Of a stretch of DNA of 64,000 nt, positions 5,580-61,440 are shown piece by piece. This stretch comes from Mobula hypostoma (lineage: Eukaryota). How positions within the stretch are numbered: the stretch's first letter is position 1; each line of letters starts with the position of its first letter. The notes below the pieces were generated by a model. The model ran no database searches and was not told the DNA's origin. It was given only the letters and a program-made list of their open reading frames with translations. The translations under genes were made by a program, and so were the position numbers. The DNA is taken from contig NC_086097.1 of assembly GCF_963921235.1 (NCBI RefSeq), positions 22,570,001 through 22,634,000 of the forward strand. The letters are read 5' to 3'.

Positions 5580-5720
5580 AAACACAGGAGATTCTGCGGA
5601 TGCAAAATGCTGGAGGGACTCAGCAGGCAAGAGAGCACCTATATAGAGGAATAACTAGTTGATATTTTGGGCTGAAACTCTTCATCAGGACTGGAAAGGG
5701 AGGGGGGATGAAGCCAGATT
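5580..5720 (-). mobile_element. Penelope-derived short element with degenerate hammerhead
   Basis: aaacacaggagattctgc...ttcatcaggactgg. Confidence 0.75.
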
Positions 5721-6845: not shown

Positions 6846-7434
6846 TGGTATTGTAGGATTGGATAAGTTGTTCTAACACTGCAGTGATTCAAAATGAATT
6901 CCATAATGTGAGCATTTTATTTCAGGACTTGATACAATATTGAAAAGCTTGACGAGCATTTGGAAAGCCAGACCTCATTCTGAATCTCTGTTTACAAGTG
7001 TAAAATTCCAGCCTTCTGGTGAGCCAGTGGCTCCATGTCAAATTAAGCTTTTGACTTGGAAAGCATGCTGTGTTCCCGCTGACAATATAGTCATCCTGAG
7101 CCTGGAAGGGTGAGCGAACTGAACAATTCATTTGGCGTGCGGCCTGAGCTCAAACATTAACATGTATAGTTATGTCCTGGGGTAGTAGGTGAATTTGATT
7201 TGTCGAAAGATATCCTAACCCTCTCGATATTCCCTGCGGCACATAAACTAATAGGCATCAGATTGGCTTTTTGCTTCAGTCTGGGGAATAAAAAAAAATA
7301 GCAGATACACCAGCCAACTGTTTATACAAGAAAACATTTGGGTCACCTAGTTCCACGATAGAACTGACTATATAAATTCCATTTGCCTGTTTTTTTTTCT
7401 CTCTCTCCGTGCCCTCTAAATATTTTGAGGTTTT

Positions 7435-8097
7435 ATCACACACAAAGTGCTAGAGGAACTCAGCAGGTCAGGCAGCATTTATAGAGGGAAATACGCAGTC
7501 AGTGTTCTGGGCCAAGACCTTTTATCAGGACTGGAAAGGAAGGGGGGAGGGGGGTGAAGCTGGCAGGGGATTGGTGGAAAAGGTACAGGGCTGAAGAAGG
7601 AGGAATCTGAGGGGAGTGGAGAGTGGACCATGGGAGAAAGGGAAGGAGGAGGGGCACCAGAGGGAGATGATTGGCATTTGAAGAGCGGGAATAAGAGTAA
7701 AGTGGGAATGGGGAATGGAAAAAGAGAGAATGAGAAGGGCGGCGAAATTCCAATTACTGAACATTAGAGAAATCGCTGTTCATTCTGTCATGTTGAAGGC
7801 TATCAAGGTGGAATATGAGGCAGTAGTGGATGCTATAAACTGACTTTCCTTCCTACTCTTGATAATGGGTCTCAGCTTGAAACATTCTCCATAGACACAA
7901 AATACTCTGCAGATGCTGGGGTCAAAGCAACACTCACAACATGCTGGAGGAACTCAGCAGGTCGGGCAGCATCTTTTCCACGGATGCTGCCCGACCTACT
8001 AAATTCTCCATAGACGCTGCCTGACCTGCTGAGTTCCTCCAGCATTTTGTGTGTGTTACTCTAGATTTCCAGCATCTGCAGAATCTCTTGAGTTTTT
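7435..8097. mobile_element. Penelope-derived element with inverted terminal regions
   Basis: Minus-strand arm 7435-7820 ending in a GIY-YIG C-terminal remnant; plus-strand arm 7845-8097. Confidence 0.8.
7897..8002. mobile_element. Younger Penelope-derived mini element nested in the previous one
   Basis: 13-bp TSD attctccatagac (7884-7896 and 8003-8015); internal inversion ggtcgggcagcatc/gatgctgcccgacc. Confidence 0.85.
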
Positions 8098-8195
8098 GAG
8101 ACTCTGTCAGATGGCTTCCTGATAAAAGCATTCATGTTGAGAAGCCTGATCTCTAATATTACTTTTTACAGTATGCACGAGTGAAAATTAATATT

Positions 8196-13429: not shown

Positions 13430-13782
13430 ATGTTCTCCAAATCTTTGACCACGTACTCACTCAGAATCTTCCCCATTTTGGTCTCTTACCTCTTCTCACC
13501 TGCCTATCACCCATCTCCTGATTCCCCTCCTCCTTCCTTTTCTCCTATGGTCCACTTTCCTCTCCTATCAGATTTCTTCTTCTCCAACCCTTTATCTTTC
13601 CAACCCACCTAGCTTCACCTATCACTAGCTAGCCTCTCCCCCCTCCCTTTTTATTCCGGCATCTTCTCCCTTCCTTTCCAGTGCTGAAGAAGGGTCTTGG
13701 CCCAAAACGTCAACTGTTTATTCATTTCCTTAGATGCTGCCTGACCTGCTGAATTCCTCCAGCGTATTGTGTGTATTGCTTT
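13430..13782 (+). mobile_element. Penelope-like 3' region with degenerate hammerhead
   Basis: Pyrimidine-rich tract, then cagtgctgaagaagggtcttggcccaaaacgtcaactg and gatgctgcctgacctgctga. Confidence 0.85.
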
Positions 13783-13784
13783 GC

Positions 13785-14460
13785 AAAAGTTGGTGTTTTA
13801 CAGCATCAGTACAGTGACTGCATAAGAAAACTATAAATTGCAATAAGAACTACAGTTAAAAAATTAAATTATAACGGGGAACGTCGACTCAGACCATGAG
13901 AGGCCTGCGTCGGGCACTTTCATGCCTTACAAGGCGCAAATTGGAAGTCTGTGTGGGGTGCCACTCCTCGCACAGACACTAGAGCAATGTGTGATTAAGT
14001 GCCTTGCTCAAGGGCACAAACACGCTGCCACAGCTGAGGCTCGAGAACTAGCGACCTTGAGATAACTAGACGAACGCCTTAACCACTTGGCCACGTGCAA
14101 ATAGTTAATAAAAATGCAAAACTAGTGAGGTAAAGATCGTGGGTGCATTGTCCATGCAGAAATCTGATGGCAGAGAGGAAGGAACTGTTAGTAAACTATT
14201 GAGTGTTTGTCTTCAGGCTCCCATACCTCCTAACTGATGGTAGGAATGAGAAGAGGGCATGTTCTGGGTGGTGTAGGTCCTTAATGATGGATGCTGCCTT
14301 TGTGAGGCATCAGTTTTGAAGGAGACCTATATAGTGGGGGAGGCTAGTGCCCATGATCTGGCTGAGTTTGCAACCCTTGGAAGCTTTTTCCGATCCTGTG
14401 CAATGGCCCCTCCATATCTGACAGTGATGCAAACAGTTGGAATGCTCTCCATGATCTATC
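13785..14460 (-). mobile_element. Rex1/Babar 3' fragment (interrupted by a SINE)
   Basis: gtcttcaggctcc...ctgatggtagg...gaagagggcatg...tccttaatgatggatgctgcc, reverse complement of the family C-terminus. Confidence 0.8.
13874..14098 (-). mobile_element. tRNA-derived SINE with CORE-like central domain
   Basis: Minus strand: A box tggccaagtgg, B-box-like gttctcgagcc, then tgtgcccttgagcaaggcacttaa; CpGs retained. Confidence 0.75.
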
Positions 14461-22073: not shown

Positions 22074-22206
22074 GTGATGAAGGGTCTCGGCCCGAAATGT
22101 CAACTGTTTATTCATTTACATAGATGCTGCCTGGCCTGCTGAGATCCTCCAGCATTTTGTGTGTGTTGCTTTGGATTTACAGCATCTGCAGATTTTCTCA
22201 TGTTTG
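22074..22206 (+). mobile_element. Penelope-derived short element
   Basis: tgatgaagggtctcggcccgaaatgtcaactg...agcatctgcagattttctcatgtttg. Confidence 0.88.
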
Positions 22207-22244
22207 TGGTTCTGTCTAAGCTAGTACTTTTCCTGTAATGTTAT

Positions 22245-22472: not shown

Positions 22473-24254
22473 GTTATGTTCAGCTGTCTCATGTGTTCCA
22501 CCTTGTCAAAGGCCATTTGAAAATCGAAATAAACAACATCCATTGATTCTCCTTTGTCCTACCTATTATTTACCCAGAATTCCAACAGGTTTGTCAAGTA
22601 CAATCTCCCATTTAAAAACCAGGCTGACTTTGGCCCATTTTATCATAGCCTCCAAGTACCCTGTAACTTCATCGTTAATAATAGTTTCCAACATCTTTCT
22701 AGCTACTGACATCAGGCTAACTGGCCTATAATTTCCTTTCTTCTACCTCCCTCCCTTCTTAAAGAGTGGAATAGCATTTGCTATTTTCCAGTCCTCAGGA
22801 ACCATTCCAGAATCCAGAGATTCTTGGAAGGCAATTACTAATGCCTCGACAATCTCCTCAGCTACCTCTTTTAGCACCCTGGGGTGTAGTCTACCTGGTT
22901 CAGATGACTTATCTACCTTCACACTTTTCAGTTTCCCAAGCACCTTCTCCTTAGTAATAGCAATGACACTCAACTTCTGCCCCTGACCTCCTCGCATAGT
23001 TAGCATTCTGCTGGTATTCCCCCACAGTGAAGACAGACACAAAATACATATTAAGTTCCTCCACCATTTCTTTGTACCCCATTACTACCTCAAATATACC
23101 CAATGACTTGGCCTCCACAGATGCCTGTGGCAATGAATTCCACAAATTCATTACCCTCTGGATAAAGAAATTCCCACCTATCTCTGTTCGAAAGGGATAT
23201 CCTTGATTCTGATTCTGTACCCTCTAGTCCTGGACTCTCCCACAATAGGAGACAACCTCTCTGCATCCTCTCTATCCAGGCCTTTCAATGTTCAATAGAT
23301 TCCAATGAGTCCCCCCGCCCCACCCCTATTCTTCTAAGCTCCAGTGAGCACAGGCCTAGAACCAGCAAACAAATGGTTGTTATTTATCAGAGTTTAGAAG
23401 AACAAGTAATTTTCCTGATGAAGCAAGATGCTGAGGGGAATTGACAGGCTGTCAATGATCAGAATACTCAGAGGCTGGTTTCTCAGATGTGAGAACCTTA
23501 AAACTGATGGGGAGTGTGCTAGCCACAGAAAAAAAGTCAACCTTTTAGAACTATGATGAGTTCAAACTCCATGGAAGTTTTCACTCTAGTTCATAACAGC
23601 CAAGGATTCTGAAGGGGGCCTGATGAAGGGTCTCAGCCAATGTTGACTCTTTATACCTCTCCGTCGATGCTGCCAGACCTGCTGAGTTTCTCTGGTATTT
23701 TTGTATGTGTTACGCAGCCAAGGATGATAGATGTGTGGATTGTGGGGAATTAAAGGATAAGCAAATTGTCAGGGAAGTGGATTTAAGGTACAGCATCAAT
23801 CGCAAACTTATTAAGTTGCCGAAGGAGGCTGGAAAGCCTCTGTGAATCTGCCGCCTTTTATTTGCTTCTGTTCTTTGTTTTCTTAAATTCTGAAATGCAC
23901 ATGAAATTTTCTGCCATCTGAACTTGATGCCATCATTTGTTGCTTGGTTGTCCCTTGGGTTTGAGAATAACTTACTTCCACTCAAAAGATGAGGGTACTG
24001 AAGTTGCTGACTGTGCAGGACTGCAGAATTTGCCACTGATGGGCCACAGTATACTTGCTGAGGTAGTAGGTGGTAGTTCAGGAGGATAATGCTAGGCTTC
24101 TAAGTATTTTTAACAAATGTAATCAAGGTTTTGATGCTCTGTAAGGTCCTTTTGCATTCTGAACAGTCATGGCTTAGGGATCTCGCTGAGTTAATGTTTG
24201 TGTTATACTGTTTCACTGAGGCTTGAGAACCTTCTTGAGTTATCTCTTTTTGTG

Positions 24255-29934: not shown

Positions 29935-30110
29935 GGCCTTCTCCCTCCCCTGATCTTACCAATCACCAGCCAGCATGTATTCCCTTCCCCCTCCCTCTAC
30001 TATCTTCTTCTGGCGTCTGCCCCTTTCCTTTCCAGTCCTGATGAAGGGTCTCAGCCCGAAACATCGACTTTCATTTTCCTCCATAGATGCTGCCTGACTT
30101 CCTCCAGCAA
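29935..30110 (+). mobile_element. Penelope-derived short element
   Basis: ccctttcctttccagtcctgatgaagggtctcagcccgaaacatcgact...catagatgctgcctgac. Confidence 0.85.
30034..30069 (+). ncRNA. Minimal type I hammerhead ribozyme motif
   Basis: agtc-CTGATGA-aggg tctcag ccc-GAAA-ca-TC-gact: 4-bp stem I, core boxes intact. Confidence 0.6.
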
Positions 30111-30559
30111 ATCTCCTTTACCAAACTGCATCCACTATACGGCACTAACAAATAAATGAATCTCGGGTAGTATATGGTGACATATACATACTTTGGTTAT
30201 ACGTTTACTTCAACTTTGACCACCCTGACAATAAAGATCGATGACCCTGGAAAATAAGGATCACTTTCCATATCTTGGCAGCCACCATTTGACAAAAGTA
30301 GACATTGATGTTGAGCTTCGGGCAGATTCCAGATTCTGAAAACTGAACAAAAATTGCTGGTGTTACTTTTGCATTGCAGGACTCTGAAGAAAATGCTCAC
30401 CTGTGCAATTTTATTTGACACCTTTCCCGCACACAAGACACTGTGCTGAGTGCACTAATTAAAAATATAAATTGCTGAAACAGTACTTATGATTTGAAAT
30501 AGATTGCCACCTTCTGGAAAAGATGTTTTAACCCCAAGCACTTTCCTGTTGGGCTCAAA

Positions 30560-30750
30560 AAGATAAGAGATTCTGCAGATGCTGGAAATCCAGAGCAACA
30601 TACACAGATTTCTGGAGGAACTCAGCAGCACAGTGAATAATGAGGAATAATAGTGATAAGGGATCTTGGCTGGAACCCTCAACTGTTTATTCCTCTCCAT
30701 AGATGCTGCCTGACCTGCTGAGTTCCTCCGGTATTTTGTGTGTGTTGCTC
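30560..30750. mobile_element. Penelope-derived element, inverted arrangement
   Basis: agagattctgcagatgctgg...ggaactcagcag and the opposite arm ctgctgagttcctccggtattttgtgtgtgttgctc. Confidence 0.8.
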
Positions 30751-31644
30751 TATTTGGACTTGAGTTGCAGTCGCAGGTTGCCCATTCGTCGAGGATGGGA
30801 AACTACCAATTACATTGATAATAACCTTAAAGAAGTCATTCATCAATATAATAAACTTGAAATACGGAGCAACATTTTAAGGCTTCTTAAAAATAAAAGA
30901 TTCAATTTTTTTTCAACCAACTGGTTAGATTGTATTATTTTAAAAAATGATGGATTATTTGTCAAATTGCTTGCAATTGTCCTTTAGACCTTCAGTAATT
31001 ATTGGCTCATTTCTTGGTTATTGTGTTTTACATCAATGCGCTGCTTTTGACATTTGTGGTTAGTTCTTAATTAAAAAAAAATATGTTTGCTAGAATCCCA
31101 GCTGTTTGCAGAAGCAGTCTATAAATTCTTTAATCAGTGAAATACACAGATGGGTATTCTGGTGCTGCTTACTGCTGACACAAATACAGAGTAAATAGTT
31201 ACGAAAATGTTAGTGGCTAATGTAGTGCTGAACTGTGTATTCTTACCCACTGCTGACATGGTCCAGGGGCAGACAATAGGAAAGCAAGGATATGTTTGGC
31301 TGATTGATAAAACATTTCATTTGTTATGGGAGCACAATTGTGGCAGAATCACGGTATAGTAGATTAAACACTTAAAACTGGTGGTTAATACACAAATGAG
31401 CGCTGGGTGAAGACCTCTTGCCTGTTTTGTGTGAAGTAAGATTACTTTATTGTCATATACTCCAGTGTGCGATGAATATCCTTGTTTGTATGAAGCTCCC
31501 TGCGTAAACTGTATACACTGTCGTAATAATTACAGCAATCGTTATAGTGCTGAGTTCAAGACAATAGAATGGTGGAAAGATTGTAGTGCAACCTGGGGTA
31601 ATGGAAAAAATGCTAAAGTGACAAAAGTGGAATAGATTAGATTA

Positions 31645-31990
31645 GCAGACATGAGGAAATCTGCAGATGTTGGAAATTCAAGCAACACACACAAAAAATG
31701 CCGTTGAACGCAGCAGGCCAGGCAGCATCTATAGGAAGAGGTACAGTCAACATTTCGGGCCGGGACCCTTCGTCAGGACTGAAAGAAGATATAGCAAGAG
31801 ATTTGAAAGTGGAAGGGGGAGATCCGAAATGATAGGAGAATTCAGGAGGGGAGTGGTGGATCTAAGAGCTGGAAAGTTGATACTAGGCTGGAGAAGGGAG
31901 AGGATCATGGGACGGGAAGCCTGGGGAGAAAGAGAAGGGGGGAGGGGAGCCCGAAGGGTGGAGAGCAGGCGAGGAGTTATAGTGAGATTC
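31645..31990 (-). mobile_element. Penelope-derived element, younger subfamily
   Basis: Close match to 44700-45002 and 42966-43157. Confidence 0.88.
31744..31781 (-). ncRNA. Minimal type I hammerhead ribozyme motif
   Basis: Minus strand cagtc-CTGACGA-aggg tcccgg ccc-GAAA-tg-TT-gactg: perfect 5-bp stem I. Confidence 0.65.
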
Positions 31991-32469
31991 GATTAGATAA
32001 GTTTTATTTGTCACAAGTGCCTAAAAACATACAGTGAAATGCATCATTTGCATCAACAGCCAAAATAGTCGGAGGATGTGCTGGGCAGCCCCTGAGTATC
32101 ACCATGTTTCCGGTGCCAATGTAGCATGCCTACAACTTACCACCCTAACCCAAGAGAGGTAGAATGAATAGTCCAAGAAAGTAGCAGCACCAGCAAGTAA
32201 GGGACATAAAAGACATGACTGGTTGAGAAGTCTGATAGAAGTGAGGAAGCAGCTCTTCTGAAGTCTGGCTATCTGGGATTTCAGGCATGCATCTTCTGCC
32301 AGAAGGGAGAGAAGAGAAAAAAGGGAGTGATCAGCATGGAAAGTATCCTCGAAAATACTACTAGCCTTCCTGAGGCAACACAATGAGACGATAGACTAGA
32401 TGGGAGGCATTAATGAGCTCACAGTGATACACATTGAACAGGTTTTGCATTCGGAAACTTGTATTAAAG

Positions 32470-33065: not shown

Positions 33066-33894
33066 GCTTTATTTAATTAATTCATTGATAGAAACATGTT
33101 TTGCGTGCCATGGACGAAGTAGTAGAAGTTTTGGACAGTTTGAAAGTGGGCCAATGTAGATGGCTTTGCCAGACATCAGATTTTCTCAGCTTTTTTTTGT
33201 TGTTTCATCCAACTGAGTACAGAATCTTGTCATTTTCGATCAGAATGGCTCTGGGTGGGAAGTTGACACACAGGAGGACCAAGAAAAGGTAAATCAAATG
33301 TTTGAGGAAATGTTTTAGGAACAGCTTCTTCCCCTCTGCCATTGGATTTCTGAATTGACAATGAACACCATCTCACTTATTGCAGTACTGAATTTTTTTT
33401 CTTATTGTAACTTACAACAAACCTCACGACATGAACATGGACATTTAAGAGGACAAAGGGGTTTGAAAACTACAGCTGGTTGATGTAAACTCAATTGCAA
33501 TAAATTCTATCAAAACAATCATTTTAAATGATAAATAAGAGAAAATCTGCGAATGCTGGAAATCCAAGCAACACACACAAAACGCCAGAGGAGCTCAGCA
33601 TCTATGGAAAAGAGTACAGTCGATGTTTTGGGCCGTGACCCTTCAGCAGGTTTGATGATAATCAGAAATAGAAATGTGACTTCAATAGTTAAAATCCACT
33701 TATGCTTAGGGAAAATATTTGCTTATATCCTTTTCCTGCTCATCAAATCAGATGTATAACAATGTTCAGAACAGGAGTTATAATAGTTTTATTTTAAAGT
33801 GATTGGAAGAAAGTATGGGGGGGTGGTGGTGTCAGAATTACATTTTTTTGTGTGGAACACCGTGCCTGGGGTGGTGATAGAGGCAGAGGCAGAA

Positions 33895-34243: not shown

Positions 34244-34334
34244 CATTTAAGGTTGTCGCATGGATGATAAAAAAATGGAGGGCATTGTGGGAGGGAAGGG
34301 TTAGATCAAGTTTCAGGTGTAAGTTTAATTGTCA

Positions 34335-34516
34335 ACACAAAATAATCTGCAGATGCTGGGGTCAAAGCAACACTCACAACACACTGGAGGAACTCAACAG
34401 GTCGGGCAGCATCCGTGGAAAAGATCGGTTGACATTTCGGGCCGGAACAGTCCTGATGAAGGGTTCCGGCCCGAAACGTCGACCAATCTTTTCCACGGAT
34501 GCTGCCCGACCTGCTG
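34335..34516. mobile_element. Penelope-derived palindromic mini element
   Basis: 13-bp TSD agtttaattgtca (34322-34334 and 34517-34529); about 58-bp imperfect inverted arms around a hammerhead. Confidence 0.9.
34450..34483 (+). ncRNA. Minimal type I hammerhead ribozyme motif
   Basis: gtc-CTGATGA-aggg ttccgg ccc-GAAA-cg-TC-gac with palindromic ACGT in place of stem III. Confidence 0.7.
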
Positions 34517-35519
34517 AGTTTAATTGTCATTTAGCTATACATGAATACCCATGAATACAACCAAACAAAACAGTGTTACTCCGGGGGCCAAGGTGCATAA
34601 CACAGTACCGACAGTCACACACAGCACAAAGCACACATAGCACATATAACATGGTAAGTGCATGTAAGGCAGCGAGTACATATAAGATATCAGTAAAACA
34701 CAGTCACAGAAGGAAATCTAGTCCAAGACCTTGACCCACAAATGCGCTGCGGCAGCCTGCAGTCGAACGCATCATGGCTTATCTTCTGCCAAGTGAACAG
34801 TGAGAGGCAGTGACACCGGCTTGGAGGCTGCGCCCTACTGCCCCCAGCACTCCGGTGGAGCACACCGACTCCAACGCCTCTCTCCTGGGCGGCTGTAAAC
34901 AGGCAACACCGTGCTTTGAGGCGTAACCCTCGCTACGAGTGAGGCCACGCACCTCCCCTGCCGTTTCCCAATAAATCAGTTAATCGAATGCAGCTTAGCT
35001 CTGAGTGTAGGTTAAAAAGTCAGCAAAACATAATGGACAGTCTGTACTGTTTTGTAAGGTTCTATGTTAACATACGGCAAGGTGAGATGGACTCTTGTTA
35101 GGGGTTGTCATTGCTGACCCTTTTGGGGTGAGAATGTTAATTATCAGTCCATGTCAGAATGTCCTTCAGAAGTGTTTTAATGGCTCAGTACTGAACATTT
35201 TCCAATCCTTGACTATATATTATTGAAGTGAATGCAGTCTGGTAGCTCTGGGTGAAATTTAACGTTGTTGTTCCATTGGGGATGTTAAAGAGACTCTTCG
35301 ATATGTACATAATAAAAGGAAAGTGGTGGTCTAAGTGGATGGGATGGGTTAGATTGATCTTACTGTAGGTTAAGAGGACAGCACAACAATGTGGGCCAAA
35401 GGGCCTGTACTGTTTTATGTTCTTTATGTCAGTGATGGTAATTCTGATTCTGTTTCCACATGTTGCAGCGGAGAGATTCACTGCTGAAAGAAATTTGTGA
35501 CCCATTACTTTAAAGGTAG

Positions 35520-36845: not shown

Positions 36846-37343
36846 TTTCTAATTCTCCTAACTTCTCCCTGTAAGCTTTGACACTTTTACTAATCAAAAA
36901 CCTATCACCCTCCACTTTAAATATACCCAATGACTTGGCCTCCACAGCTGCTTGTGGCAGTGAATTCCACAGCACTGAAACAATAGGATGTTTGTTGTAA
37001 AATAATGTTCCAGGTCAGATGAATGGGATTTACAAAATTCCTGCTTGTAATTTGTATTACCTAGTGCAGGGCTTGGCATTGGAATTGGTTTATAATTGCC
37101 ACGTGTACCAAGGTGCAGTGTGAAGCTTGTCTTGCATACTGTTCATACAGGTCAGATCATTACATAGGGCTTTGAGGTAAAACATTGTAAAAGTTACAGA
37201 GAAAGTGCAGTACAGCTAAACAGTAAAGTACAAGATCATAATTTGTTAGATTGTGAGGTCAAGAATCCACCTTATCATGTAAGAGATCTGTCCACGAGCC
37301 TGAGAACAGTGGGATAGAAGCTGCACTTGAGACTGGCAATACG

Positions 37344-37443
37344 TTACGTCCTGACGAAGGGTCTCGGCCTGAAACGCCAACTGTACCTCTTCCTAGAGAT
37401 GCTGCCTGGCCTGCTGCGTTCACCAGCAACTTTGATGTGTGTT
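37344..37443 (+). mobile_element. Penelope-derived 100-bp element
   Basis: TSD actggcaatacg/actggtaatacg (37332-37343 and 37444-37455); begins just upstream of ctgacgaagggtctcggcctgaaacg. Confidence 0.88.
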
Positions 37444-37554
37444 ACTGGTAATACGAGCTTTCAGGCTTTTGTACCGTCTGCCCAATCGGAGTGGGTTGTG
37501 TGTAATTTGTAGTATTTTAGCCTCTTAGTTTAACAGGACTACATCAATATTTAT

Positions 37555-38745
37555 GGGTTGCAGAGTGGAGATACTTCTCTTCCAAAGGAGGTGAAAGAGA
37601 GAGCCTGTGGCATGTCGAATTGTCGGGCGAACGATTGATTTATGTTGTACTGCAGATCATGGTCCTCCCTGGGGTCCTTGCTATTGCATGCTTGGTGGGT
37701 GGAGGGTCATTGCTTTGCTGTTGCTGTGTGTGGGAGTGGGGAGTTGGGGGGGGGGGCTTTGGGTTCTAACATTTTAACTGTCACTCATTCTTTAGGGCAC
37801 ACTCCTCTTTGCATAGATGTCTGCGAAGAGCAAGAACTTCAGGATGTACGTTACTCTGATATTGAACTATTGAACTAAGGTGCAGCTTCCCTCTGCTAGC
37901 TTGTAGGTCACCCTTGGGCAAGGTGCAGCATCTGCTTAGCTTCCTCGATCAGGGTTCAGTGGGAGCAGGTGGTGGGTGGTTGCATGATCAGCCAGTAAAT
38001 ATCGTAAAGTCCTGGTTATGCGACCACTGACACCAGGAAAACAATCTCTGAACGGTATTGGCTGGGGTCACTCATCTTGTAAAGACACTGCCCAGAAGAA
38101 GTTATTTGGAGTATTGTGTACAGTTCTGGTCACCGAATTATAGGAAAGATATCAACAAGATCGAGAGAGTACAGAGTAGATTTACTAGAATGTCACCTGG
38201 GTTTCAGCACCTAAATTACAGAGAAAGGTTGAACAAGCTGGGTCTTTACTCTTTGGAGTTTAGAAGGTTGAGGGGGGACTTTATAGAGGTATTTAAAATT
38301 ATGAGGGGGATCGGTAGAGTTGACATGGATAGGCTTTTTCCATTGAGAATAGGGGAGATTCAAACAAGAGGACATGAGTTGAGAGTTAGGGGACAAAAGT
38401 TGAGGGAGAACTTCTTTACTCAGAGAGTGGTAGCTGTGTGGAATGAGCTTTCAGCAGAAGTGGTAGAGGCAGGTTCGATATTGTCATTTAAAGTCAAATT
38501 GGACAGCTATATGGACAGGAAAAGAATGGAGGGTTATGGGCTGAGTGCAGGTCAGTGGGACGAGATGAGAGTAAGCGTTCGGCACAGACTAGAAGGGCCG
38601 AGATGGCCTAATTGTTATATGGTTATATGGTTATAAGAAGGCAATGGAAAACCACTTCTGTAGAAAAAATTGCCAAGAACAATCATGGTCAAAGACCATG
38701 ATCGTCCCCATCATGCGACATGGCACATAATGGTGATGATGATGA
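37555..38745 (+). mobile_element. RTE-related non-autonomous retroelement, twice interrupted
   Basis: agaaggcaatggaaaaccact...ttgccaaga motif typical of RTE/Bov-B-derived elements; (GAT)n tail. Confidence 0.6.
38102..38634 (+). mobile_element. Young CR1 3' fragment with open ORF2 C-terminus
   Basis: YLEYCVQFWSP...LGLYSLEFRRLRGD...FFTQRVVAVWNEL; (GTTATATG)n tail; TSD aagaag. Confidence 0.93.
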
Positions 38746-39064: not shown

Positions 39065-39704
39065 CCTTGGAATCTTCTGTAATGTCATCTCTTAGTTTTC
39101 TCTTTTTTGAGAGAAAGGTTCTCCAGCCTACTGAATTTTTTCCGATAGGTTGAGATTCTCAATTCAGTGTAATCCAAGCAGCTCCTTTAGTAAACACAAT
39201 AGATTCTTCAGATGCTGGAAGTCCAGAGTAATACACACAAAGTGCTGGAGGATCTCAGCAGGTCAGGCAGCATCTATGGAGGGGAATAAAGAGTCAATGT
39301 TTCAGGCTGAGGCCAAAACTTTTCTATCACCTCAATATTGTTTTTAGAAGGATGTAGGCCAAAGCTATTCAAGTTTATAGCCTTGCCAGAACGTGATGTA
39401 GTTTTAACATGATACCTGCTCTTGTGTTATTTCAAATGCTTTGGTTTAATTTGTTACCCTTTTGATTGAAGATAAAAGCTGCACTACAGTTGGAGTGTAG
39501 TTAGATTTGGATGATGAGATATTGTATATTTTTATTCATTTGTGAGCTGCTCTGTATCATTGGCTATGTATCTATTTCACTAATTGCTCTTGAACGCAAT
39601 GGCTTTTTAGTCCACTTAACAGGTAAAAACATAGCTGTAGGTCTGGAGTTTCATACGTTCCTTGTCAGAAATGAGTAGCAGATATCCCTCCTTCGAGGAC
39701 ATAC

Positions 39705-40939: not shown

Positions 40940-41440
40940 TAAACCCAAGAGATTCTGCAGTTGCTGGATATCAAGATCAATGCAAAATGGTGGAACACAG
41001 TAGGTCAGGCAGCATCTGTGGAGGGAAATAAACAGCCAACGTTTCGGGCTAAGACACTTGATCAGGACTGGAAAGGAGGGAGAGGAAATCAGAATAAGAA
41101 GCTGGTGGGGGAGGGGAAGGAGTACAAGTTGGCTGGTGATAGGTGGAGCCAGGTGAGGGGGGGAGGTGTATGATTGGGTAAATGGGGGGGGGGGAATGAA
41201 GTGAGAAGCTGGCTGGTGGTAGATGGAGCCAGGTGAGGGGGGGAGGTGTATGATTGGGTAAATGGGGGGGGGGGAATGAAGTGAGAAGTTGGGAGGTGAT
41301 AGCTGGAGGAAGTAAGGGCTTTAGAAGGAGGACTCTGATAGGAGAGGAAAATGGGCCATCAGAGAAAGGGAGGGAGGAGGGTCACCAGAGGGAGGTGATG
41401 GGTGAGTAAGGAGAAGAGAAGGGGAGAGAGGGGAGCCTGA
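40940..41440 (-). mobile_element. Penelope-like 3' region with internal 80-bp tandem duplication
   Basis: Family terminus at 40940-41075; duplicated units 41131-41210 and 41211-41290. Confidence 0.85.
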
Positions 41441-41769: not shown

Positions 41770-42175
41770 TAAACATAAGAGATTCTGCAGATGCTGGGAA
41801 TCCAGAGGAATACACAAAGTGTTGTGGGAACTCAACCAGATCAGGCAGCGTCTATGAAGAGGAATAAACAGTTGATGGTTTGGGTTTAGAGCTTTCATCG
41901 GGATTGGAATGAAAGGGAGAAGAAGATGGGGTAGAGGAAAGGAGTATAAGCAAGCGGGTGACAGGTGAAACCAGGGGGTGAGGGGGTTGGTCAGTGGTGG
42001 GGAAGGGGAATGAAATGAGAATCTGTGAGGTGAAATTACGGGAAATTAAATAAATCAATGTACATACCATCTGGTTGGAGGTTACTCAGACGGAATATGA
42101 GGTGTTGCTCCTCCAATCTGGAAAAAAAAGCCTCATTGTGGCCATAGCCCGACATGCTGGAATGGTAATTAGAGT
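41770..42175 (-). mobile_element. Penelope-like 3' end including GIY-YIG endonuclease C-terminal remnant
   Basis: Minus strand about 42119-42066 translates as RLEEQHLIFRLSNLQPDG; terminal hammerhead-bearing region downstream. Confidence 0.85.
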
Positions 42176-42216
42176 GAAAATGGGTGTTTTATTGTTTGAT
42201 AATTCTGTTTTATTTA

Positions 42217-42283
42217 CAGTACTGTGCAAAAGTCTTAGGCATGTATATATAGTGAGTGGGCCCAAGACTCTTGTCAAGTACTG
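42217..42283. mobile_element. Tc1-type mini MITE
   Basis: TIR cagtactgtgcaaaagtcttagg, TA on both sides. Confidence 0.8.
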
Positions 42284-43157
42284 TAGTACTTCTCCACCTA
42301 CTTACTCCCTCTGTCAGCTCTGAACCCCTGAATTGAATAAAGCTGCCCAAATCTCACAGAGCAGCCCCATTCAGAGTTCTTTTTCAAAGTTTATTGAATC
42401 TAAGTAACACCACAGCTAATATATCGAATATGATATATAATACCAAATAAGTTATTTGCTTGAAACAAGAAAGGAATTGTGCAAGACCAGACGATAGGAA
42501 ATGCTGTAATCTATGACCATGTGCCTTGCATTGCTTCAGGCTTTGGATTTAATGATCATGTTCAGCCCACAACTCTTAACTGTTATTTCAATTCCCACGC
42601 AATTAGCTCTAATCCTTATTCCAAGCACAGCTCCAACAACCAAGCAAATATTTGACCCTGTCTGTAATCTGATTGATTATTCTAACCTATCCATAGTTTA
42701 GCTGCAAAATTGCCCAAAATAGCTGAATTGCAAAAACAGTCCTGCCCACCATTGAGTGCTACCATAAGAAAGCAATATGCATTCTGAAGGACGCCCCTCA
42801 TCCAGGCCATGCTCTCTTCTTGCTGCTGTCATCAGGAGGGAGGTACAGGAGGCTCTGGACCCACGCCACCAGGTTCAGGAACAATTACCATCCAGTCATC
42901 AGGTGCTTAAACAAGTGTGTATAACTTCAATCACAACAACATTGAAATGATTCTGTGACCTATGGTTGACGTTTCAGGCTGAGACCCTTCGTCAGGACTA
43001 ACAGAAGGAAGAGACAGTAAGAGATCTGAAAGTGGGAGGGGGAGGGGGAGATCCGAAATGATAGGAGAAGACAGGAGGGGGAGGGATGAAGCTAAGAGCT
43101 GGAAAGTTGATTGGCAAAAGGGATATGAGAGGATCATGGAGGCCTAGGGAGAAAGTA

Positions 43158-44572
43158 AGTCATAGTCACAGTCATACTTTATTAATCCCAGGGGGAATTG
43201 GTTTTCGTTACAGTTGCTCCATAAATAATAAATAGTAATAGAACCACAAATAGTTAAATAGTAATATGTAAATTATGCCAGTAAATTATGAAATAAGTCC
43301 AGGACCAGCCTATTGGCTCAGGATGTCTGACCCTCCTAGGGAGGAGTTGTAAAGTTTGTTGGCCACAGGCAGGAATGACTTCCCATGACGCTCAGTGCTG
43401 CATCTCGGTGGAATGAGTCTCTGGCTGAATGTACTCCTGTGCCCACCCAGTACATTATGTAATGGATGGGAGATATTGACCAAGATGGCCTGCAACTTAG
43501 ACAGCATCCTCTTTTCAGACACCACCGTGAGAGAGTCCAGTTCCATCCCCACATCATCATTGGCCTTACGAATGAGTTTGTTGATTCTGTTGGTGTCTGC
43601 CACCCTCAGCCTGCTGCCCCAGCACACAACAGCAAACATGATAGCACTGGCCACCACAGACTCTTTGACCAGTCCAGTTTATTGTCAATTCGTATCCCCA
43701 GGTACTTGTAATCCTCCACCATGTCGACACTGACCCCCTGGATGGAAACAGGGATCACCGGTACCTTAGCTCTCCTCAGGTCTACCACCAGCTCCTTAGT
43801 CTTTTTCACATTAAGGTGAAGATAATTCTGCTCATCCCATGTGACAAAGTTTCCTACCGTAGCCCTGTACTCAGCCTCATCTCCCTTGTTGATGCATCCA
43901 ACTATGGCAGAGTCATCCGAAAACTTCTGAAGATGACAAGACTCTGTGCAGTAGTTGAAGTCCGAGGTGTAAATGGTGAAGAGAAAGGGAGACAAGACAG
44001 TCCCCTGTGGAGCCCCAGTGCTGCTGATCACTCTGTTGGACACACAGTGTTGCAAGCACACGTACTGTGGTCTGCCAGTCAGGTAATCAAGAATCCATGA
44101 TACCAGGGAAGCATCCACCTGCATTGCTGTCAGCTTCTCCCCCAGCAGAGCAGGGCGGATGGTGTTGAACGCACTGGAGAAGTCAAAAAACGTGACCCTC
44201 ACAGTGCTCGCTGGCTTGTCCAGGTGGGGAGACAATGGCATCCTCAATTCCTAGTCAGGGCTGGTAGGCGAATTGGAGGGGATCTAAGTGTGGTCTGACC
44301 ACAGGCCGGAGCAGCTCCAGAACAAGTCTCTCCAGGGTCTTCATGATGTGGGAGGTCAATGCCACCGGTCTGTAGTCATTGAGGCTGCTGGGGCGCGGCG
44401 TCTTCGGCACAGGGACGAGGCAGGACGTCTTCCACAGTACAGGAACCCTCCGGAGCCTCAGGCTCAGGTTGAATACATGGCGAAATATTCCACATAGCTG
44501 AGGGGCACAGGCTTTGAGCACCTTGGTACTGACACCATCCGGTCCTGCAGCCTTGCTTGGGTTGAGACGTTG
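43158..44572 (-). mobile_element. Rex1/Babar retrotransposon, RT domain largely intact
   Basis: LNDYRPVALTSHIMKTLERLV, DPLQFAYQP, DFSSAFNTI, GAPQGTVLSPFLF, KFSDDS; (ATGACT)n-like tail after AATAAA; two internal deletions or frameshifts. Confidence 0.95.
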
Positions 44573-44866
44573 GAATCCCAGAGGATGGTCAAGGAGTATA
44601 GTGAGAGGGACAGAGGGAGAAAAAGAGAAAGAAAAAAATATAATAATAATAAATAAATAACGGATGGGGTACGAAGGGGATACTCGCCCATCCTCTGGGA
44701 TCCCCCCTCCCCCTTTCTTTCTCCCTAGGCCTCCCGTCCCATGATCCTCTCATATCCCTTTTGCCAATCAACTTTCCAGCTCTTAGCTTCATCCCTGCCC
44801 CTCCGGTCTTCTCCTATCATTTTGGATCTCCTACTTTCAAATCTCTTACTATCTCTTCTTTCAGTT

Positions 44867-44902
44867 AGTCCTGACGAAAGGTCTCGGCCCGAAACGTTGA
44901 CT
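44867..44902 (+). ncRNA. Minimal type I hammerhead ribozyme motif
   Basis: agtc-CTGACGA-aagg tctcgg ccc-GAAA-cg-TT-gact; stem II weakened by one change. Confidence 0.55.
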
Positions 44903-45839
44903 GTACCTCTTCCTATAGATGCTGCCTGCCCTGTTGCGTTCACCAGCAACTTTGATGTGTGTTGCTTGAAATTCCAGCATCTGCAGATTTCCTCATGTTT
45001 GTATGTACTCATTTTCAAGGACTCTGCAACTCATGTTCAGTATATTATGTATTTAGTTAATATTTGCACATTTTGTCTTTTGCACATTGGTTGTTTTTCC
45101 GTCTGTGTATGTAGTTTTTCATTGATTCTATTGTATGTCTTTAATCTGTGAATTCCTGCAAGAAAATGAATCTCAGACGTAGTATATGGTGACATATAGG
45201 TACTTTGATAATAAATTTACTTTGCTGTTTGAAATTGCCCCCAAAGTATCCCACAGCCACCTTTTATTGTTACAATGAATGAATGAAGGAATGAATGAAA
45301 CAAGCCCCTTGTTTGTGATTGTGCCTTTTGTCTTTGATCATTCATCAAAAGTCATTGATGGTAATCTGTTTGCACCAATTAATCTGGGTAATGAACTTTC
45401 ATTTAAGGGTATGATTGGGACTTTCTCTGAATTTATTGGCAGCTGGATATGTTCTTCTCACCGTCTGGAAGTTCTGCACACAGTTAAGCTGCAGAATCTC
45501 TGTTTGGAAAATCAACGTCCATACATTGTACACTCAAGACTTGGGCTAATATATTTTAGTGACTGTATGTGCTATTGTAACTACATGTGTTTTGTATGCA
45601 TTGCGTTTTTCACCTTGGCCCCAGAGGAATGCTGTTTTGTTTAGCAGTGTATATGACAATTAAATTTGACTGTAAGCTTGTGATATTAGATTAACTTTGA
45701 AAATGAAAAGAGCTTTTCTTGTAGTTTCTTCAGCTCAGCCTCTGCTATCTTTAAGTGTGTGCAAAATAAATTGCCTTGCATAATGTCTGCAATTTTACGT
45801 CAAAATCAAATTAAAATATATCCAAAATATTTCCAAAAT

Positions 45840-46555: not shown

Positions 46556-47340
46556 GGTTCAAAGGTTCAATTTCATGTCAGAGAAATGTATACAATATAC
46601 ATCCTGAACACACATCAAAGTTGCTGGTGAACGCAGCAGGCCAGGCAGCATCTCTAGGAAGAGGTACAGTCGACGTTTCAGGCCGAGACCCTTCGTCAGG
46701 AACCCTACATCCTGAAATGTTTTTTCTTCACAAACACCCACAAAAATAGAGAAGTTCCCCAAAGAATGAATGACAGTTAAGCGTGAGAACCCCAAAGTTC
46801 CCTCTCCCGTGCGTAAGCGGCAGCAAGCAACAATCCCCCCTCGCCCCCAGCAAAAAAAAACGCACCAGCTACCAAGCACAAGCGTGGGCTAGGTGATAAC
46901 AAAGACACAGACCTTGCAGTTACCCCAAAGACTATCACATTTCATCCAGCATTCGACAAACCACAGGTTCTCTCCCTCCCTAATAAGGGAGAGGGAGGTG
47001 TCCCCCATTTTCACAGCGAGCAGGAGACATAACAACAGCCTGCTGACTTACGATGTTAAAAAGTCCATTTCATTGCTTTTTATGAGCTCTGTGACCGAAG
47101 ATCGCAAAGATCTCGGGTCTTTGGGCCCACAGTGAAAGATTTTCCGGCCTCCCCGACACGCAAATCTCCTTTCGTGACACCAACCCTCGATCTGCCCGTC
47201 TCCAGAGCCCTGAGATCTTAGGCTTTCGAATTCAAGCCGGATTCCCAGGCTGAACCCTTGGGCGTGCTGAACAATAACGGCTGGTCTCGAAACCCCGAGA
47301 ACAGGTCCCATTCCCGCAAAGAACCAAAGTCTGCGTGTAA
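46556..47340 (-). mobile_element. Unclassified non-autonomous retroelement
   Basis: Tandem tail ggttcaaaggttcaa, CpG-rich body; 3' part homologous to the plus-strand insert at about 37595-37877. Confidence 0.6.
46609..46705 (-). mobile_element. Penelope-derived 97-bp element
   Basis: 11-bp TSD tacatcctgaa (46598-46608 and 46706-46716); hammerhead core intact on the minus strand. Confidence 0.9.
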
Positions 47341-47756
47341 ACAAAGGCTGACAAGCAACCAATGTGCAAAAGTCAGTGTTGGTCAAATTAGAAGTTAAGT
47401 GCACATTTTGCTGTGAATTAAAAGCAAAGTTCAGGAGGAGCTTAGTGGGCCAGACAGTATGTGTGGAAGTAAAGAGAAGGTTGGTATAATGAGGTAGTAT
47501 CAGGATTGAGAGTGAAAGACAGCTAGTATAAAGAGGAAAGCTGTTAGTACCTGTCTATAGTAATACATCCTGATATGACTGATCTCTTGCCTCTTCAGTA
47601 CGTTAGCAGCTTTTAACTGCCTTATCTCTTTTTTTACCTGAGACATCACCTTGTGCATTAGCTTTCACACTCCTTCCATTGTTGTTCATCAATCATGACT
47701 TGGAATAATAAACAGACATGATGATCAATAGGAGCTTGACCAGAATATGTAATGTA

Positions 47757-48316
47757 CACTCAGTGGCCACTTTATTCGGTACTTCCTGCACCCAATAAAG
47801 CAGCCACTGAGTCTATGTTTGAGGTCTTCTGCTGCTGTAGCCTGTCCACTTCAAGGTTCGATGCATTGTGCATTCAGAGATGCTCTCTGCACACCACTGC
47901 TGTAATGTGTGGATATCTGAATTTAAGTTGCCTTCCTGTCAGCTTGAACCAGGGTGGCTATTCGCTTCTGACCTCTCTCATTAACAAGGTGCTTTCACCC
48001 ACTGATCTGCTGCTCACTGGAATTTTTTTTCTGTTGTTTTTCGCACCATTCTGTGTAAACTCTAGAGATTGTTGTGTGTGAAAACCCCAGGAGATCAGCA
48101 GTTTCTGAGATACTCAAACCACCCTGTTTGGCACAATCATTCCACTCTCAAAATCACTTAGGTCACTTTTCTTCCCCATTCTGATGTTTGGTCTGAACAA
48201 CAACTGAACCTCTTGATCACGTCTGTATGCTTTGTGCATTGAGTTGCTATCAAATGAGTTGATAAGATATTTGCATTAAAGATCAGCTGTACCTATAATA
48301 AAGTAGCCATTAAATG
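47757..48316 (-). mobile_element. Non-autonomous Tc1/mariner deletion derivative
   Basis: ta-cactcagtggccactttatt TIR; same body as the copies at 15583, 53381 and 58863. Confidence 0.88.
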
Positions 48317-48506
48317 TGCATTCTAGCATCAGTTCTAAGATTGTGGCCACCATAAAGTGATTCAGATGGATTCTAAGTCCCTTCTACATCACCTTTTCTT
48401 TTATGTAGTTCCTACAATCCACTCTGGATCACGTCCAATCCACTTAGTGGTTTGATCATTTTAGATTAGTCTTCCGGTTCAGAGAAATCAACTTCATTCT
48501 CAGAGT

Positions 48507-48737
48507 AACATACATCAAAGTTGCTGGTGAACGCAGCAGGCCAAGCAGCATCTATAGGAAGAGGCGCAGTCGACGTTTCAGGCCGAGACCCTTCGTCAGG
48601 ACCCTGACGAAGGGTCTCGGCCTGAAACGTCGACTGCGCCTCTTCCTATAGATGCTGCTTGGCCTGCTGCGTTCACCAGCAACTTTGATGTATGTTGCTT
48701 GAATTTCCAGCATCTGCAGAATTCCTGTTGTTTGCGT
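48507..48737. mobile_element. Very young Penelope-derived perfect palindromic element
   Basis: 94-bp perfect inverted arms (48507-48600 and 48603-48696), 41-nt tail, 14-bp TSD ttcattctcagagt (48493-48506 and 48738-48751). Confidence 0.95.
48568..48603 (-). ncRNA. Minimal type I hammerhead ribozyme motif
   Basis: Minus strand ggtc-CTGACGA-agg gtctcgg cct-GAAA-cg-TC-gact. Confidence 0.7.
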
Positions 48738-49409
48738 TTCATTCTCAGAGTTGTGGATGTGTTCTTCAAGATTCAGATTAGACTGACATTTAATTCTTTT
48801 TATAGATGTTAAGATTATCGTATTCTATTGACATTATTACAGGTGGCAGAATAGAAAATGAATGGGTTTATTAGATCCACATAAGTAATTGATTTGATTT
48901 AGATTTACTAATCACATGTACAGTGAAGCTTGTTGTTTGCATTAACAGCCAACACCATCTGAGGGTGTACTGGGGGCAGCCTGCAAGCGTTGCCACATAT
49001 TCTGGCTCCAACGTAGCACGCCCAGAAGGTTCGGCAGAACAACACGCAGCCAACGTGCAACAAGCAAAACAAACCTCACTCCCACCTCCCCACCCAAACT
49101 CACAAACAGGCCTCCAGCCTCAGAACAGGCCGCCTGCTGTCCTCTGACTTCCAAACTTGCTGACCTAATAGATTCTACAGTTGTATTTACACTGCACGTC
49201 CCTCATAAAATGAATTGACATTTCCATATTTGATGAGTTTGTTTGATCACGCAATTAACATCCCTCATTCTGGGTTGCTTCAAGTTGACCATTTGTGCAA
49301 TCTAGTATAAGTGTGTTCACAACCATTCCAAACTCTCCAAATTCATACAATTTAAGTAGCAATTGTACTTCTGATTTAATCACAAGTTTGAAGTAGAGAG
49401 CACGTCTTA

Positions 49410-51160: not shown

Positions 51161-51589
51161 TGTTGTTTGTTGTTCAGGATTCCAGCATCTGTAATCTCAT
51201 GTGTTTCTTACCTTCTCTGCTTCTATTTTCTGAAGCAGGGTCTTTGACCCGTGACTTGAACTATTTCTCATTCTATTGATGCTGCCTGTCCTGCTGAATT
51301 CTCCCAGCATTTTCAGTTTTAATTACTGGGCAGTTTGTCAGTTTAAAATTTGTATGCCAGTATTATTTAGAATGTCAAACCCATATTCCTTAAATCATCT
51401 TATTGACCGGAGTAATATATCACAGTCCATCATTTCATTGCAGTAAAGAAGTCATAAACCATTTACAACATCCCAGAGAAGAATATTAATGATAACATAT
51501 TTCACTCTTCTTCTGAGATTTCAAATAGTTTTTTGGTGAAGTGTATGGTATGACTATATAAGGTGGTGATTGGGAATTAATTTTAATTT

Positions 51590-51820: not shown

Positions 51821-52448
51821 TAAGGTTAGCATTCATCTCAGGAGGACTCGAATATAGAAGCAAGGATGCAACATTCAGACTTTATAAAGCACCGGTGAGG
51901 CCTCACTTGGAGTATTGTGAGCACTTTTGGGCCCTTTATCTTAGAAAAGATATGCTGAAACTGGAGAGGGTTCAAAGGAAGTTCTTGAAAATGATTCCAG
52001 GATTGAATAGCTTGTCGTATGAAGAGTGTTTGATGGCTTTGGGTCTCTATTCACGAGAATTCAGAAGAATGAGAGGTGATTTCATTGAAACCTATCAAAT
52101 GTTGAAAAGACTTTGATAGAGTAGACGTGGAGAAGGTGTTTCCTCTGATAGGAGAGGACCAGAGGACACAGGCTCGGAATAGAGGGGCATCCTTTTAGAT
52201 TAGAGATGAGGAGCAATTTCTTTTGCCAGAGAGTGGTGAATCTGTGGAATTCTTTGCCACTGGCAGCTGTGGAGGCCAAGTCTTTATGTATATTTGAGGC
52301 AGAGGTTGATAGATTCTTGACTGGTCAGGTCATAAAGGGATATGTGGCTGAAATTGGGGCTGAGACAAAAATTGGATGAAATGGTGAAGCAGACTTGATG
52401 AGCCAAATGGCCTAATTCAGCTCCTATATCGTAAGGTCTTTTGGTCTA
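51820..52448 (+). mobile_element. CR1 3' fragment
   Basis: ORF 51793-52116 (VRPHLEYCEHFW...LERVQRKF...EFRRMRGDFIETYQML). Confidence 0.9.
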
Positions 52449-52559
52449 AGATGCTGGAGGAATTCAGCAGGTCAGGCAGCATCTATGGAGAGGAAGAAAT
52501 AAAGAGGACGTTTTGGACTGAGTCCTGCCGAGTTACTCCAGCATCTTGTGTGTGATACC

Positions 52560-55194: not shown

Positions 55195-55445
55195 TGTGGA
55201 GTATAAACAGAGAAGGCTTTGAACATAAACTGTTCTACATAGTCAACAAAGACATAGCTTGGCCCATGTGAGGGCCCATGGCTACCCCTTGAGCTTGGAG
55301 GAGCCGAAGGAAAAATTGTTCAGGGTGAGGACCAGTTCTTCCAGAAGGAGGAGAGTGGTGGTGGTGGTGGAGGGGGATTGATTGGTTCTTCTGTCAAGAA
55401 AGAAACAGAGAGCCTTGAAGTCTTCCTGATGCAGATAGAAGTGAT
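55195..55445 (-). pseudogene. Penelope-like reverse transcriptase remnant
   Basis: HQEDFKALCFFLDRR...LLLLEELVLTLNNFSFGSS, then after a frameshift GVAMG-PHMGPSY...VDYVEQ, typical PLE RT motifs. Confidence 0.85.
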
Positions 55446-55766: not shown

Positions 55767-55841
55767 CAGTATTGTCCAAAAGTCTTAGGCATCCTAGTAC
55801 ATACATACAGCAAGGACGCCTAAGACTTTTGCACTGTACTA
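55767..55841. mobile_element. Tc1-type mini MITE, same family as 42217-42283
   Basis: cagtattgtccaaaagtcttaggc...gcctaagacttttgcactgtact. Confidence 0.8.
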
Positions 55842-61127: not shown

Positions 61128-61440
61128 GCACAAAGACGAGAAAATCTGTGGATGCTGGAAATCTGAGCAACACACACAAAATGCTGGAGGAACTCAGCAG
61201 CCCAGGCAGCATCTATGGAAACGAACATGCAGTTGGCTTTTTGAGGGGTGAGGGAGACCCTTCAACAGGAATGGAAAAAAAAAGATGAGGTTACAGCAGG
61301 AAGCTGGGGAGAGGAGGAAGAAGTACAAGGTGGTAGGTGATAGGTAAAACTGGGAAAGAAGGAGAGGTGAAGTAAAGAGCTGGGAAGTTGATAGGTGAAA
61401 GAGATGAAGGGCTGCAGGAGGGTAATCTGATAGGAAGCAA
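61128..61440 (-). mobile_element. Penelope-derived element
   Basis: gatgctggaaatctgagcaacacacacaaaatgctggaggaactcagcag plus purine-rich arm. Confidence 0.85.

Follow-up and report, generated by a model that had tools for sequence, protein, structure and literature searches.

A candidate minimal type I hammerhead in the pseudo-LTRs of a Penelope-like element of Mobula hypostoma, and its truncated and inverted copies

Minimal type I hammerhead ribozymes (min-HHRs) form a class that is already known: they were described in the Penelope-like elements (PLEs) of metazoans, including Xena, Poseidon and Neptune of fish (Cervera and de la Pena 2014, PMC4209133), and passages of two later papers treat their role as still an open question (PMC11167929, PMC8557442). 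Cartilaginous fish are not among the hosts named in the available text of PMC4209133, and a preprint reports non-LTR retrozymes in one chondrichthyan genome (10.64898/2026.07.22.740005). Among the articles listed in our literature searches on sharks and rays, no description of the PLE hammerhead family reported here was found. The family was followed from a motif in a window of 64,000 nt, the whole stretch of M. hypostoma DNA that was analysed. With a probability of about 0.88, we take this motif for the minimal type I hammerhead that an autonomous PLE with a Neptune-type linker carries in its pseudo-LTR, and regard the copies in the window as 5'-truncated and inverted insertions of that element.

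The motif reads gtc-CTGATGA-a-gggt-tccg-gccc-GAAA-cg-t-c-gac on the plus strand and can be divided as follows:

34450..34483, plus strand: whole motif, a putative minimal type I hammerhead
34450-52/34481-83, plus strand: stem I of this copy, 3 bp
34453-59, plus strand: CUGAUGA box
34460, plus strand: unpaired A before stem II
34461-64/34469-72, plus strand: stem II, GGGU/GCCC, with a 4-nt loop
34473-76, plus strand: GAAA box
34476-79, plus strand: palindromic ACGU in place of helix III
C34480, plus strand: C17, with predicted cleavage after it

The original prediction had placed here a core with both boxes, stems I and II and an ACGU palindrome, and had put C17 at 34480; the sequence agrees with it on these points. 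Its drawing of stem II as aggg against ccc has to be corrected, as the A is unpaired and GGGU pairs with GCCC around a loop of 4 nt, and the ccc that it gave for every intact copy reads cct at 42966, 46667 and 48568. The CUGANGA and GAAA boxes, the U16.1-H17 site and the type I closure that define the class are all present, and this copy keeps the G10.1-C11.1 pair that PMC4209133 calls highly conserved in the text available to us. The unpaired A is common to the majority sequences of all four subfamilies described below, and so is the ACGU palindrome at 15.2-16.2 without a helix III loop (in the oldest subfamily by a CpG-aware call). As far as the published account goes, the min-HHRs of PMC4209133 share with the present motif the type I core, the short helix I, the unpaired base between positions 9 and 10.1, and the palindromic 15.2-16.2 without loop 3 in both pseudo-LTRs; unlike them, helix II is of 4 bp here and the dominant subfamily has G-U at 10.1-11.1. 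Judged by these sequence features, the motif is a min-HHR of PLEs, and we accept the earlier assignment to this Penelope-type class, which is thought to cleave as a dimer. In an ungapped scan with the 38-nt motif (at most 13 mismatches), 17 matches were found in the window, one of them the mirror arm of the same element, and none in each of five base shuffles of the window. A loose pattern of the two boxes also gave 17 matches against 5.58 expected, nine of which are family members. The Rfam scan of the window gave no hammerhead match; its five weak matches are repeat-derived hairpins, none of them a ribozyme.

In the host genome (3.48 Gb in 200 contigs), relatives of the window copy at 44688-45002 extend upstream into an ORF with reverse transcriptase (RT) and GIY-YIG motifs, and among the matches listed (150 of 154) in a search with the RT piece, many lie in open frames of 500-1,100 aa. 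The four longest open frames were taken for analysis (L035-L038). L037 and L038 are complete units, in which two direct hammerhead motifs, one in each pseudo-LTR, stand 3,512 and 3,508 nt apart, respectively; the direct repeats of L037 are 523 bp long (96%) and those of L038 344 bp (95%), with ORFs of 1,016 and 1,014 aa. L036 carries an inverted 5' arm, and the long frame of L035 is a chimera with another LINE.

L037 2384-6420, minus strand: near-complete PLE unit with open ORF
L038 2258-6105, minus strand: near-complete PLE unit with open ORF

The full unit, with a period of about 3.51 kb, runs from the pseudo-LTR with its hammerhead motif through 170 nt to the RT and GIY-YIG ORF, then a pyrimidine-rich UTR of about 290 nt, a second hammerhead motif and the tail. 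The main ATG lies at +170 from the start of stem I, and a 16-codon upstream ORF begins at +52, inside the tail region. All three long ORFs searched against Pfam matched RVT_1 (E of about 2e-05 to 2e-06) and GIY-YIG (E of 5e-04 to 1e-02), all under the curated cut-offs. They carry DKG, YIDD, a CX4CX2C linker (residues 883-891 in L037, 881-889 in L038) and a GIY-YIG domain with at least two internal Cys and two His; their ESM Atlas neighbours at 0.96-0.98 are RT/GIY-YIG clusters, and no relative with a solved structure was found. The features of endonuclease-bearing (EN+) PLEs are thus present, namely one ORF holding RT plus, at its C-terminus, a GIY-YIG bearing CCHH, pseudo-LTRs in partial tandem, a tail and an inverted 5'-truncated partner. 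As described in the available part of Craig et al. (2021, PMC8557442), the EN+ elements Neptune and Nematis likewise have the C-terminal GIY-YIG with CCHH, the CX2-5CxxC linker and DKG, along with partial tandems, an inverted 5'-truncated partner and a tail; unlike in that account, the target duplications in the window give no sign of microsatellite targeting. The linker is absent from Poseidon. From the anole Poseidon element PAc, so far as Frangieh et al. (2024, PMC11167929) could be compared, the present element does not differ in having the hammerhead at the junction of pseudo-LTR and ORF, two tail end points downstream of the hammerhead, AT-rich targets and signs of uncleaved template, but the ORF of PAc begins inside the hammerhead, whereas the first ATG of the long ORF lies here 170 nt after the start of stem I. 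These comparisons suggest that the motif belongs to an EN+ PLE with the Neptune/Nematis linker, by which the clade is tentatively placed.

Other loci were collected along with these units. In L017 and L024-L029, short pieces of hammerhead plus tail have inserted into the RT region of the element itself, or adjoin it, at comparable places; these loci were picked by a chimeric query. The stretch 5500-6300 of L037 is shared with contig sets of four other organisms, with a word share of 0.64-0.78 in three and at most 0.22 in the fourth; in the distant set, position 17 is U in the deepest contig.

One exact 34-nt pattern has 6,967 matches in the genome. A descriptor in which N7, the bulge and the loop were left free finds 66,936 intact copies, or one per 52 kb, against 0 matches in the control search, so the very large family that had been predicted is indeed there. 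For comparison, PMC4209133 gives, in the part available, about 9,000 copies in Xenopus tropicalis and 4,000 in the coelacanth, with descriptors and genome sizes that differ from ours. Extrapolation from the 31 family segments of the window gives 1.0-1.7 million relics genome-wide. Among the 66,936 matches, position 11.1 is C in 17,030 and U in 49,906 (75%), the latter with G-U instead of G10.1-C11.1; the ORF-bearing L035-L038 belong to the U11.1 subfamily. This loss of the G10.1-C11.1 pair in 75% of the descriptor-intact copies counts against our preferred explanation.

Conservation was followed in a non-random sample of 100 segments of at least 60 nt from the window and the loci (8 shorter ones of 108 were dropped), assigned by hand to four subfamilies of 32, 28, 9 and 31 copies. 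Their majority sequences are identical at 31 of the 36 positions of the motif, against 5 of 30 in the flanks, with one gap column ignored and the positions not independent of one another. The differing positions are N7, two in stem II and its loop, 11.1 and, in the oldest group with its dominant CpG decay, G12. The three younger majorities keep all 11 catalytic letters, C17 and the palindrome; N7, the sole free core position, varies in them. Five CpG-prone sites are retained. The tail is also conserved between subfamilies (34 of 49 positions), and so protein binding instead of catalysis could be what the constraint serves. Among copies of the oldest group, core letters outside CpG are mutated no less often (25 of 204) than tail letters (95 of 861), so that selection acted on the master elements and not on the inserted copies, which decay neutrally. 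With core and tail decaying at one rate in the old copies, most copies are, on this evidence from sequence, not maintained ribozymes. A covariation analysis of 20 copies found two-sided changes in 2 of 17 predicted pairs, one sequence each, with an unfavourable term; the check that had been proposed on the consensus thus lent no compensatory support to stem I or II, the stems being too little diverged. The consensus fold of motif and tail together was likewise weak.

A blastn search of the window with seven natural copies finds 31 family segments when inverted arms are counted separately; together with the sequences upstream of them, these occupy some 8% of the window. The earlier estimate of about 20 elements is corrected to this figure; family copies are present at all 14 positions that it had listed (13 by the 38-nt scan, 23619 by blastn). 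Both boxes are found in 9 of the 29 segments of at least 60 nt, namely the seven formerly called core-intact, that at 37348 and an unlisted one at 48603. For the seven, the boxes were thus rightly given, but stem I, stem II and ACGU occur together only at 34450 and 48569, which are also the only 2 of the 29 segments to match the strict descriptor. The segments represent insertions, either 5'-truncated or inverted with the tails outward, and carry AT-rich duplications of the target; in being mostly single, dispersed and truncated, with some close pairs on opposite strands, they resemble the min-HHR copies in the published account of PMC4209133. Besides the two insertions treated below, the window holds:

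5600..5718, minus strand: old decayed copy
7434..7820, minus strand: old copy with the last endonuclease codons (7757-7819), pseudo-LTR and decayed motif at 7495-7532
7890..8098, both strands: nested and inverted tail fragments of two subfamilies, without the motif core
13483..13790, plus strand: old decayed copy with pseudo-LTR
15388-15450, 19921-19987 and 61612-61676, all minus strand: tail relics
22075..22212, plus strand: older copy that begins 5 nt into the motif, so without C3, and has a long tail
23619..23711, plus strand: old decayed copy
29958..30098, plus strand: copy of an older subfamily, motif at 30034, both boxes, palindrome broken (ACAT)
30556..30751, both strands: old tail-out inverted pair
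31635..31998, minus strand: copy with a long tail and an 8-bp duplication that keeps about 210 nt of pseudo-LTR; motif at 31743-31780
33528..33661, minus strand: older copy that begins 3 nt inside the motif, long tail, 7-bp duplication
37338..37455, plus strand: young copy with its 5' end about 3 nt upstream of stem I; both boxes, with C in place of U16.1; short tail and 6-bp duplication
39190..39314, minus strand: old copy truncated inside stem II
40940..41430, minus strand: old decayed copy, long pseudo-LTR with an 80-bp tandem duplication
41770..42185, minus strand: old copy joining the GIY-YIG C-terminus (42042-42185; tblastn E 1.7e-07, 56% over 48 aa) to pseudo-LTR and decayed motif
42963..45002: inverted pair split by a LINE; minus arm 44572-44660 plus 42963-43159, plus arm 44683-45002 with motif at 44867 and long tail
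46598..46716, minus strand: young copy of 95 bp (46607-46701) truncated 2 nt into stem I, with a short tail and an 11-bp duplication (46598, 46706)
51206..51313, plus strand: old decayed copy
52445..52557, both strands: old tail-out inverted pair
55208..55431, minus strand: decayed RT-region fragment of the same element (tblastn E 1.5e-05, blastn E 1.5e-20)
61129..61345, minus strand: old decayed copy

Duplications of 13, 14, 11, 8, 7 and 6 bp fit the ends of 6 of the 11 window elements searched; the other five have no duplication above 6 bp or none that is convincing. Microsatellite targeting was not seen among these target duplications. At two short copies the target duplication is separated from the element's 5' end by four extra bases (46702-46705 and 33651-33654); one of these runs is rich in G when read on the element strand, as would be expected of cap copying or untemplated addition. 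The LINE fragment that splits the minus arm of the pair at 42963..45002 lies at 43200-44570 on the minus strand and matches RVT_1 of Pfam (E 9.5e-16); about 10-14 nt of the PLE arm are missing at its site.

The motif at 34450 is itself part of one arm of a single palindromic insertion of 187 bp:

34322..34334: left target duplication, 13 bp, AT-rich
34334..34448, minus strand: long arm, the element 3' end with long tail, 5'-truncated inside stem II
34449..34520, plus strand: short inverted-partner arm that begins at the 5' edge of the hammerhead, stops 71 nt on and overlaps the target duplication by 4 nt
34517..34529: right target duplication, 13 bp

The arms are 93% complementary across 58 nt, and a transcript of the insertion is predicted to form a hairpin of -119.8 kcal/mol (z -13.3) in which GAAA and the cut site pair with the other arm. 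By this model the copy would not be expected to cleave in place, and the cut once predicted after 34480 is unlikely in the genomic context, where a 58-bp hairpin would cover the core. The same tail-out design is found in a second insertion, which turns at the 5' edge of the hammerhead, with motifs at 48569 (minus) and 48603 (plus), and has a 14-bp duplication of its target on either side (48493, 48738):

48493..48751: young pair of inverted arms in tail-out order (48504-48600 and 48603-48699, 99% complementary), the plus arm reaching to about 48737

With the first base of stem I as the origin, tail ends fall at about +99 or about +133, which resembles the anole element with its two internal sites where reverse transcription starts (PMC11167929). 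The 5' ends were read by eye in 100 copies, the first of the 40,610 that are anchored on the young tail (both variants); they come from the first 6.1 Mb of one contig, and both arms of inverted pairs were counted. Nearly half (49) continue upstream past -38, and the ends of the other 51 fall at +16..+32 (9), +6..+15 (7), -5..+5 (21), -15..-6 (12) and -37..-16 (2); the rate per base is 2.3% at -5..+5, 1.9% at -15..-6 and 0.18% just upstream. Inversion junctions account for 34 of the 51 breakpoints, and among the 17 plain junctions, nine are at -1..+3 and only one is within 5 nt of the cut site. The 5' ends thus pile up at the 5' edge of the ribozyme and not at the cut site, a pattern that is possibly new. 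As cleaved RNA would give ends at +32 and few ends lie near the cut site, the RNA templates seem mostly uncleaved; uncleaved templates were likewise found in vitro for the anole element, in the part of PMC11167929 that bears on this.

Young subfamilies have an initiator-like TCAGTT at -6..-1. An RNA start at TCAGTT and a structural stop remain as explanations of the hotspot; the former is to be read with caution, because the RNA of the D. virilis element starts 121 nt before the end of the intron that borders helix I, according to the relevant parts of PMC2377424 and PMC4209133. Two other candidates were set aside. A splice acceptor, with a pyrimidine tract and AG at stem I by analogy with D. 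virilis (PMC4209133), was rejected because the upstream letters differ between copies and, in all three testable window copies, the target duplication lies no more than about 4 nt from the 5' end, so there is no shared exon or cargo; among the joints listed (15 of 19) in the contig sets, none matched this reading. Snap-back of new DNA at stem I is real but rare, its exact junction occurring 37 times with one tail variant against the 40,610 anchored copies of both variants. A drop in depth upstream of the motif, in four contig sets on L037, is confounded by older subfamilies that diverge there and was left aside.

Several of these observations can be joined in a tentative and rather doubtful reading. 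The pile-up at the 5' edge, at about 10 times the per-base rate of the next 22 nt upstream, may mean that short copies arise by internal initiation as "strong-stop" products, from uncleaved RNA whose start, or whose block to the enzyme, lies at stem I, and that the subfamily with most success expanded once its conserved 10.1-11.1 pair had been weakened. In our preferred explanation of the family, by analogy with the work on the anole PLE (PMC11167929, so far as it is available), the protein would nick AT-rich DNA, and target-primed reverse transcription would initiate at the tail ends within the RNA, on the downstream side of the hammerhead. Each insertion would thus carry the tail first and the hammerhead next, most would stop early, and a second nick, with second-strand priming, would give the inverted partner arm. 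The ribozyme may be functional only in master transcripts with two direct copies, where ACGU would pair with ACGU to form helix III, or with help from protein; a lone copy would fold into an inactive rod, and inserted copies decay neutrally. For four of five copies folded as monomers, the predicted minimum lies at -9.5 to -10.5 kcal/mol and has the core paired to the ACGU region, with the open hammerhead 2-4 kcal/mol above it (-6.0 to -7.9); the fifth copy folds otherwise. Single-copy folds are no better than those of shuffles (z -0.9 to +0.9). That the master motif cleaves, in the dimer or with protein, we regard as somewhat probable.

A possible, though unlikely, alternative is that the motif derives from a hammerhead but no longer needs to cleave, being kept as an RNA signal for the PLE protein and relaxed in the youngest subfamily. 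It would account for the U11.1 fixed in the youngest, ORF-intact subfamily (L035-L038; 49,906 of 66,936) and for the single plain 5' end of 17 within 5 nt of the cut site; within the portions of the sources at hand, catalytic mutants of the anole element insert normally and no RNA reads end at its cut site (PMC11167929), and Naiad PLEs are without the motif (PMC8557442). Against it stand the 11 catalytic letters, C17 and the palindrome, kept in the three younger majorities while N7 varies, and the five retained CpG-prone sites. Moreover, a G-U or A-U pair at the base of stem II may still permit hammerhead cleavage.

That the short copies make up a non-autonomous family, SINE-like or of retrozymes, of about 100-135 nt, which starts at the hammerhead and amplifies from its own short transcripts with the PLE protein, is very unlikely; this comes close to the SINE-like ribozyme family proposed originally. 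The 5' ends do cluster at the motif edge (21 of 51 at -5..+5; 9 of 17 plain ones at -1..+3), several window copies are of 95-135 nt with adjoining duplications, and the preprint, in the text consulted, proposes retrozymes as non-autonomous PLE derivatives (10.64898/2026.07.22.740005) and describes them, like the copies here, as short non-coding PLE-derived units with a type I hammerhead. Its units, however, form tandem arrays with a ribozyme in each, whereas the copies here are dispersed singles or tail-out inverted pairs, and no head-to-tail array of the unit is among the 7 tandem rows in the window. Furthermore, 49 of the 100 copies extend upstream of -38, short copies are 93-98% identical to the end of the full-length L037, and their 5' ends are ragged and colinear with the PLE. 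The window has 0 tRNA genes and no RNA-gene match in Rfam, and the copies have no tRNA head. The SINE-like label therefore does not hold for a family with no head of its own, no fixed 5' end and a sequence colinear with the 3' end of an autonomous RT and GIY-YIG element. A chance look-alike of two short boxes inside a conserved repeat, for which the shortness of the boxes, the absence of a hammerhead match in Rfam and the absent covariation could be cited, is highly improbable, as the published PLE consensus is matched jointly by the spacing, the additional A, the closing G-C pair, the palindrome, the UH site, stem I and the place in the pseudo-LTR.

The value of the hammerhead-bearing PLE lies in its scale and natural variation, with about 67,000 descriptor-intact copies and near-intact ORFs of 1,000 aa. 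Two young subfamilies differ at a conserved ribozyme pair, and the C11.1/U11.1 difference together with the 5'-end hotspot is a cheap handle on the role of the motif. If the strong-stop reading is true, a vertebrate that holds natural variants, both strong and weak, would allow the purpose of PLE hammerheads to be tested, and tens of thousands of young insertions would be a genomic record of how a PLE uses its RNA. The element also supplies long hairpins and sites of a pyrimidine tract plus AG across the host genome.

The window contains further repeats. Decayed LINE ends lie on the plus strand at 954-1743 (with RVT_1 and ALKBH8_N matches), 38052-38636 and 62785-63210; the last two have no Pfam match and look to us like CR1-type C-termini. 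Tiny inverted-repeat elements of two types, presumably Tc1-like MITEs, are found at 47752-47818, 53376-53442, 42215-42285 and 55768-55840. The first type gives sub-threshold Rfam matches to mir-9256, which suggests that the mir-9256 family is transposon-derived. GC skew is positive in 26 of the 32 bins of 2 kb in the window, which would fit its transcription as part of a long intron.
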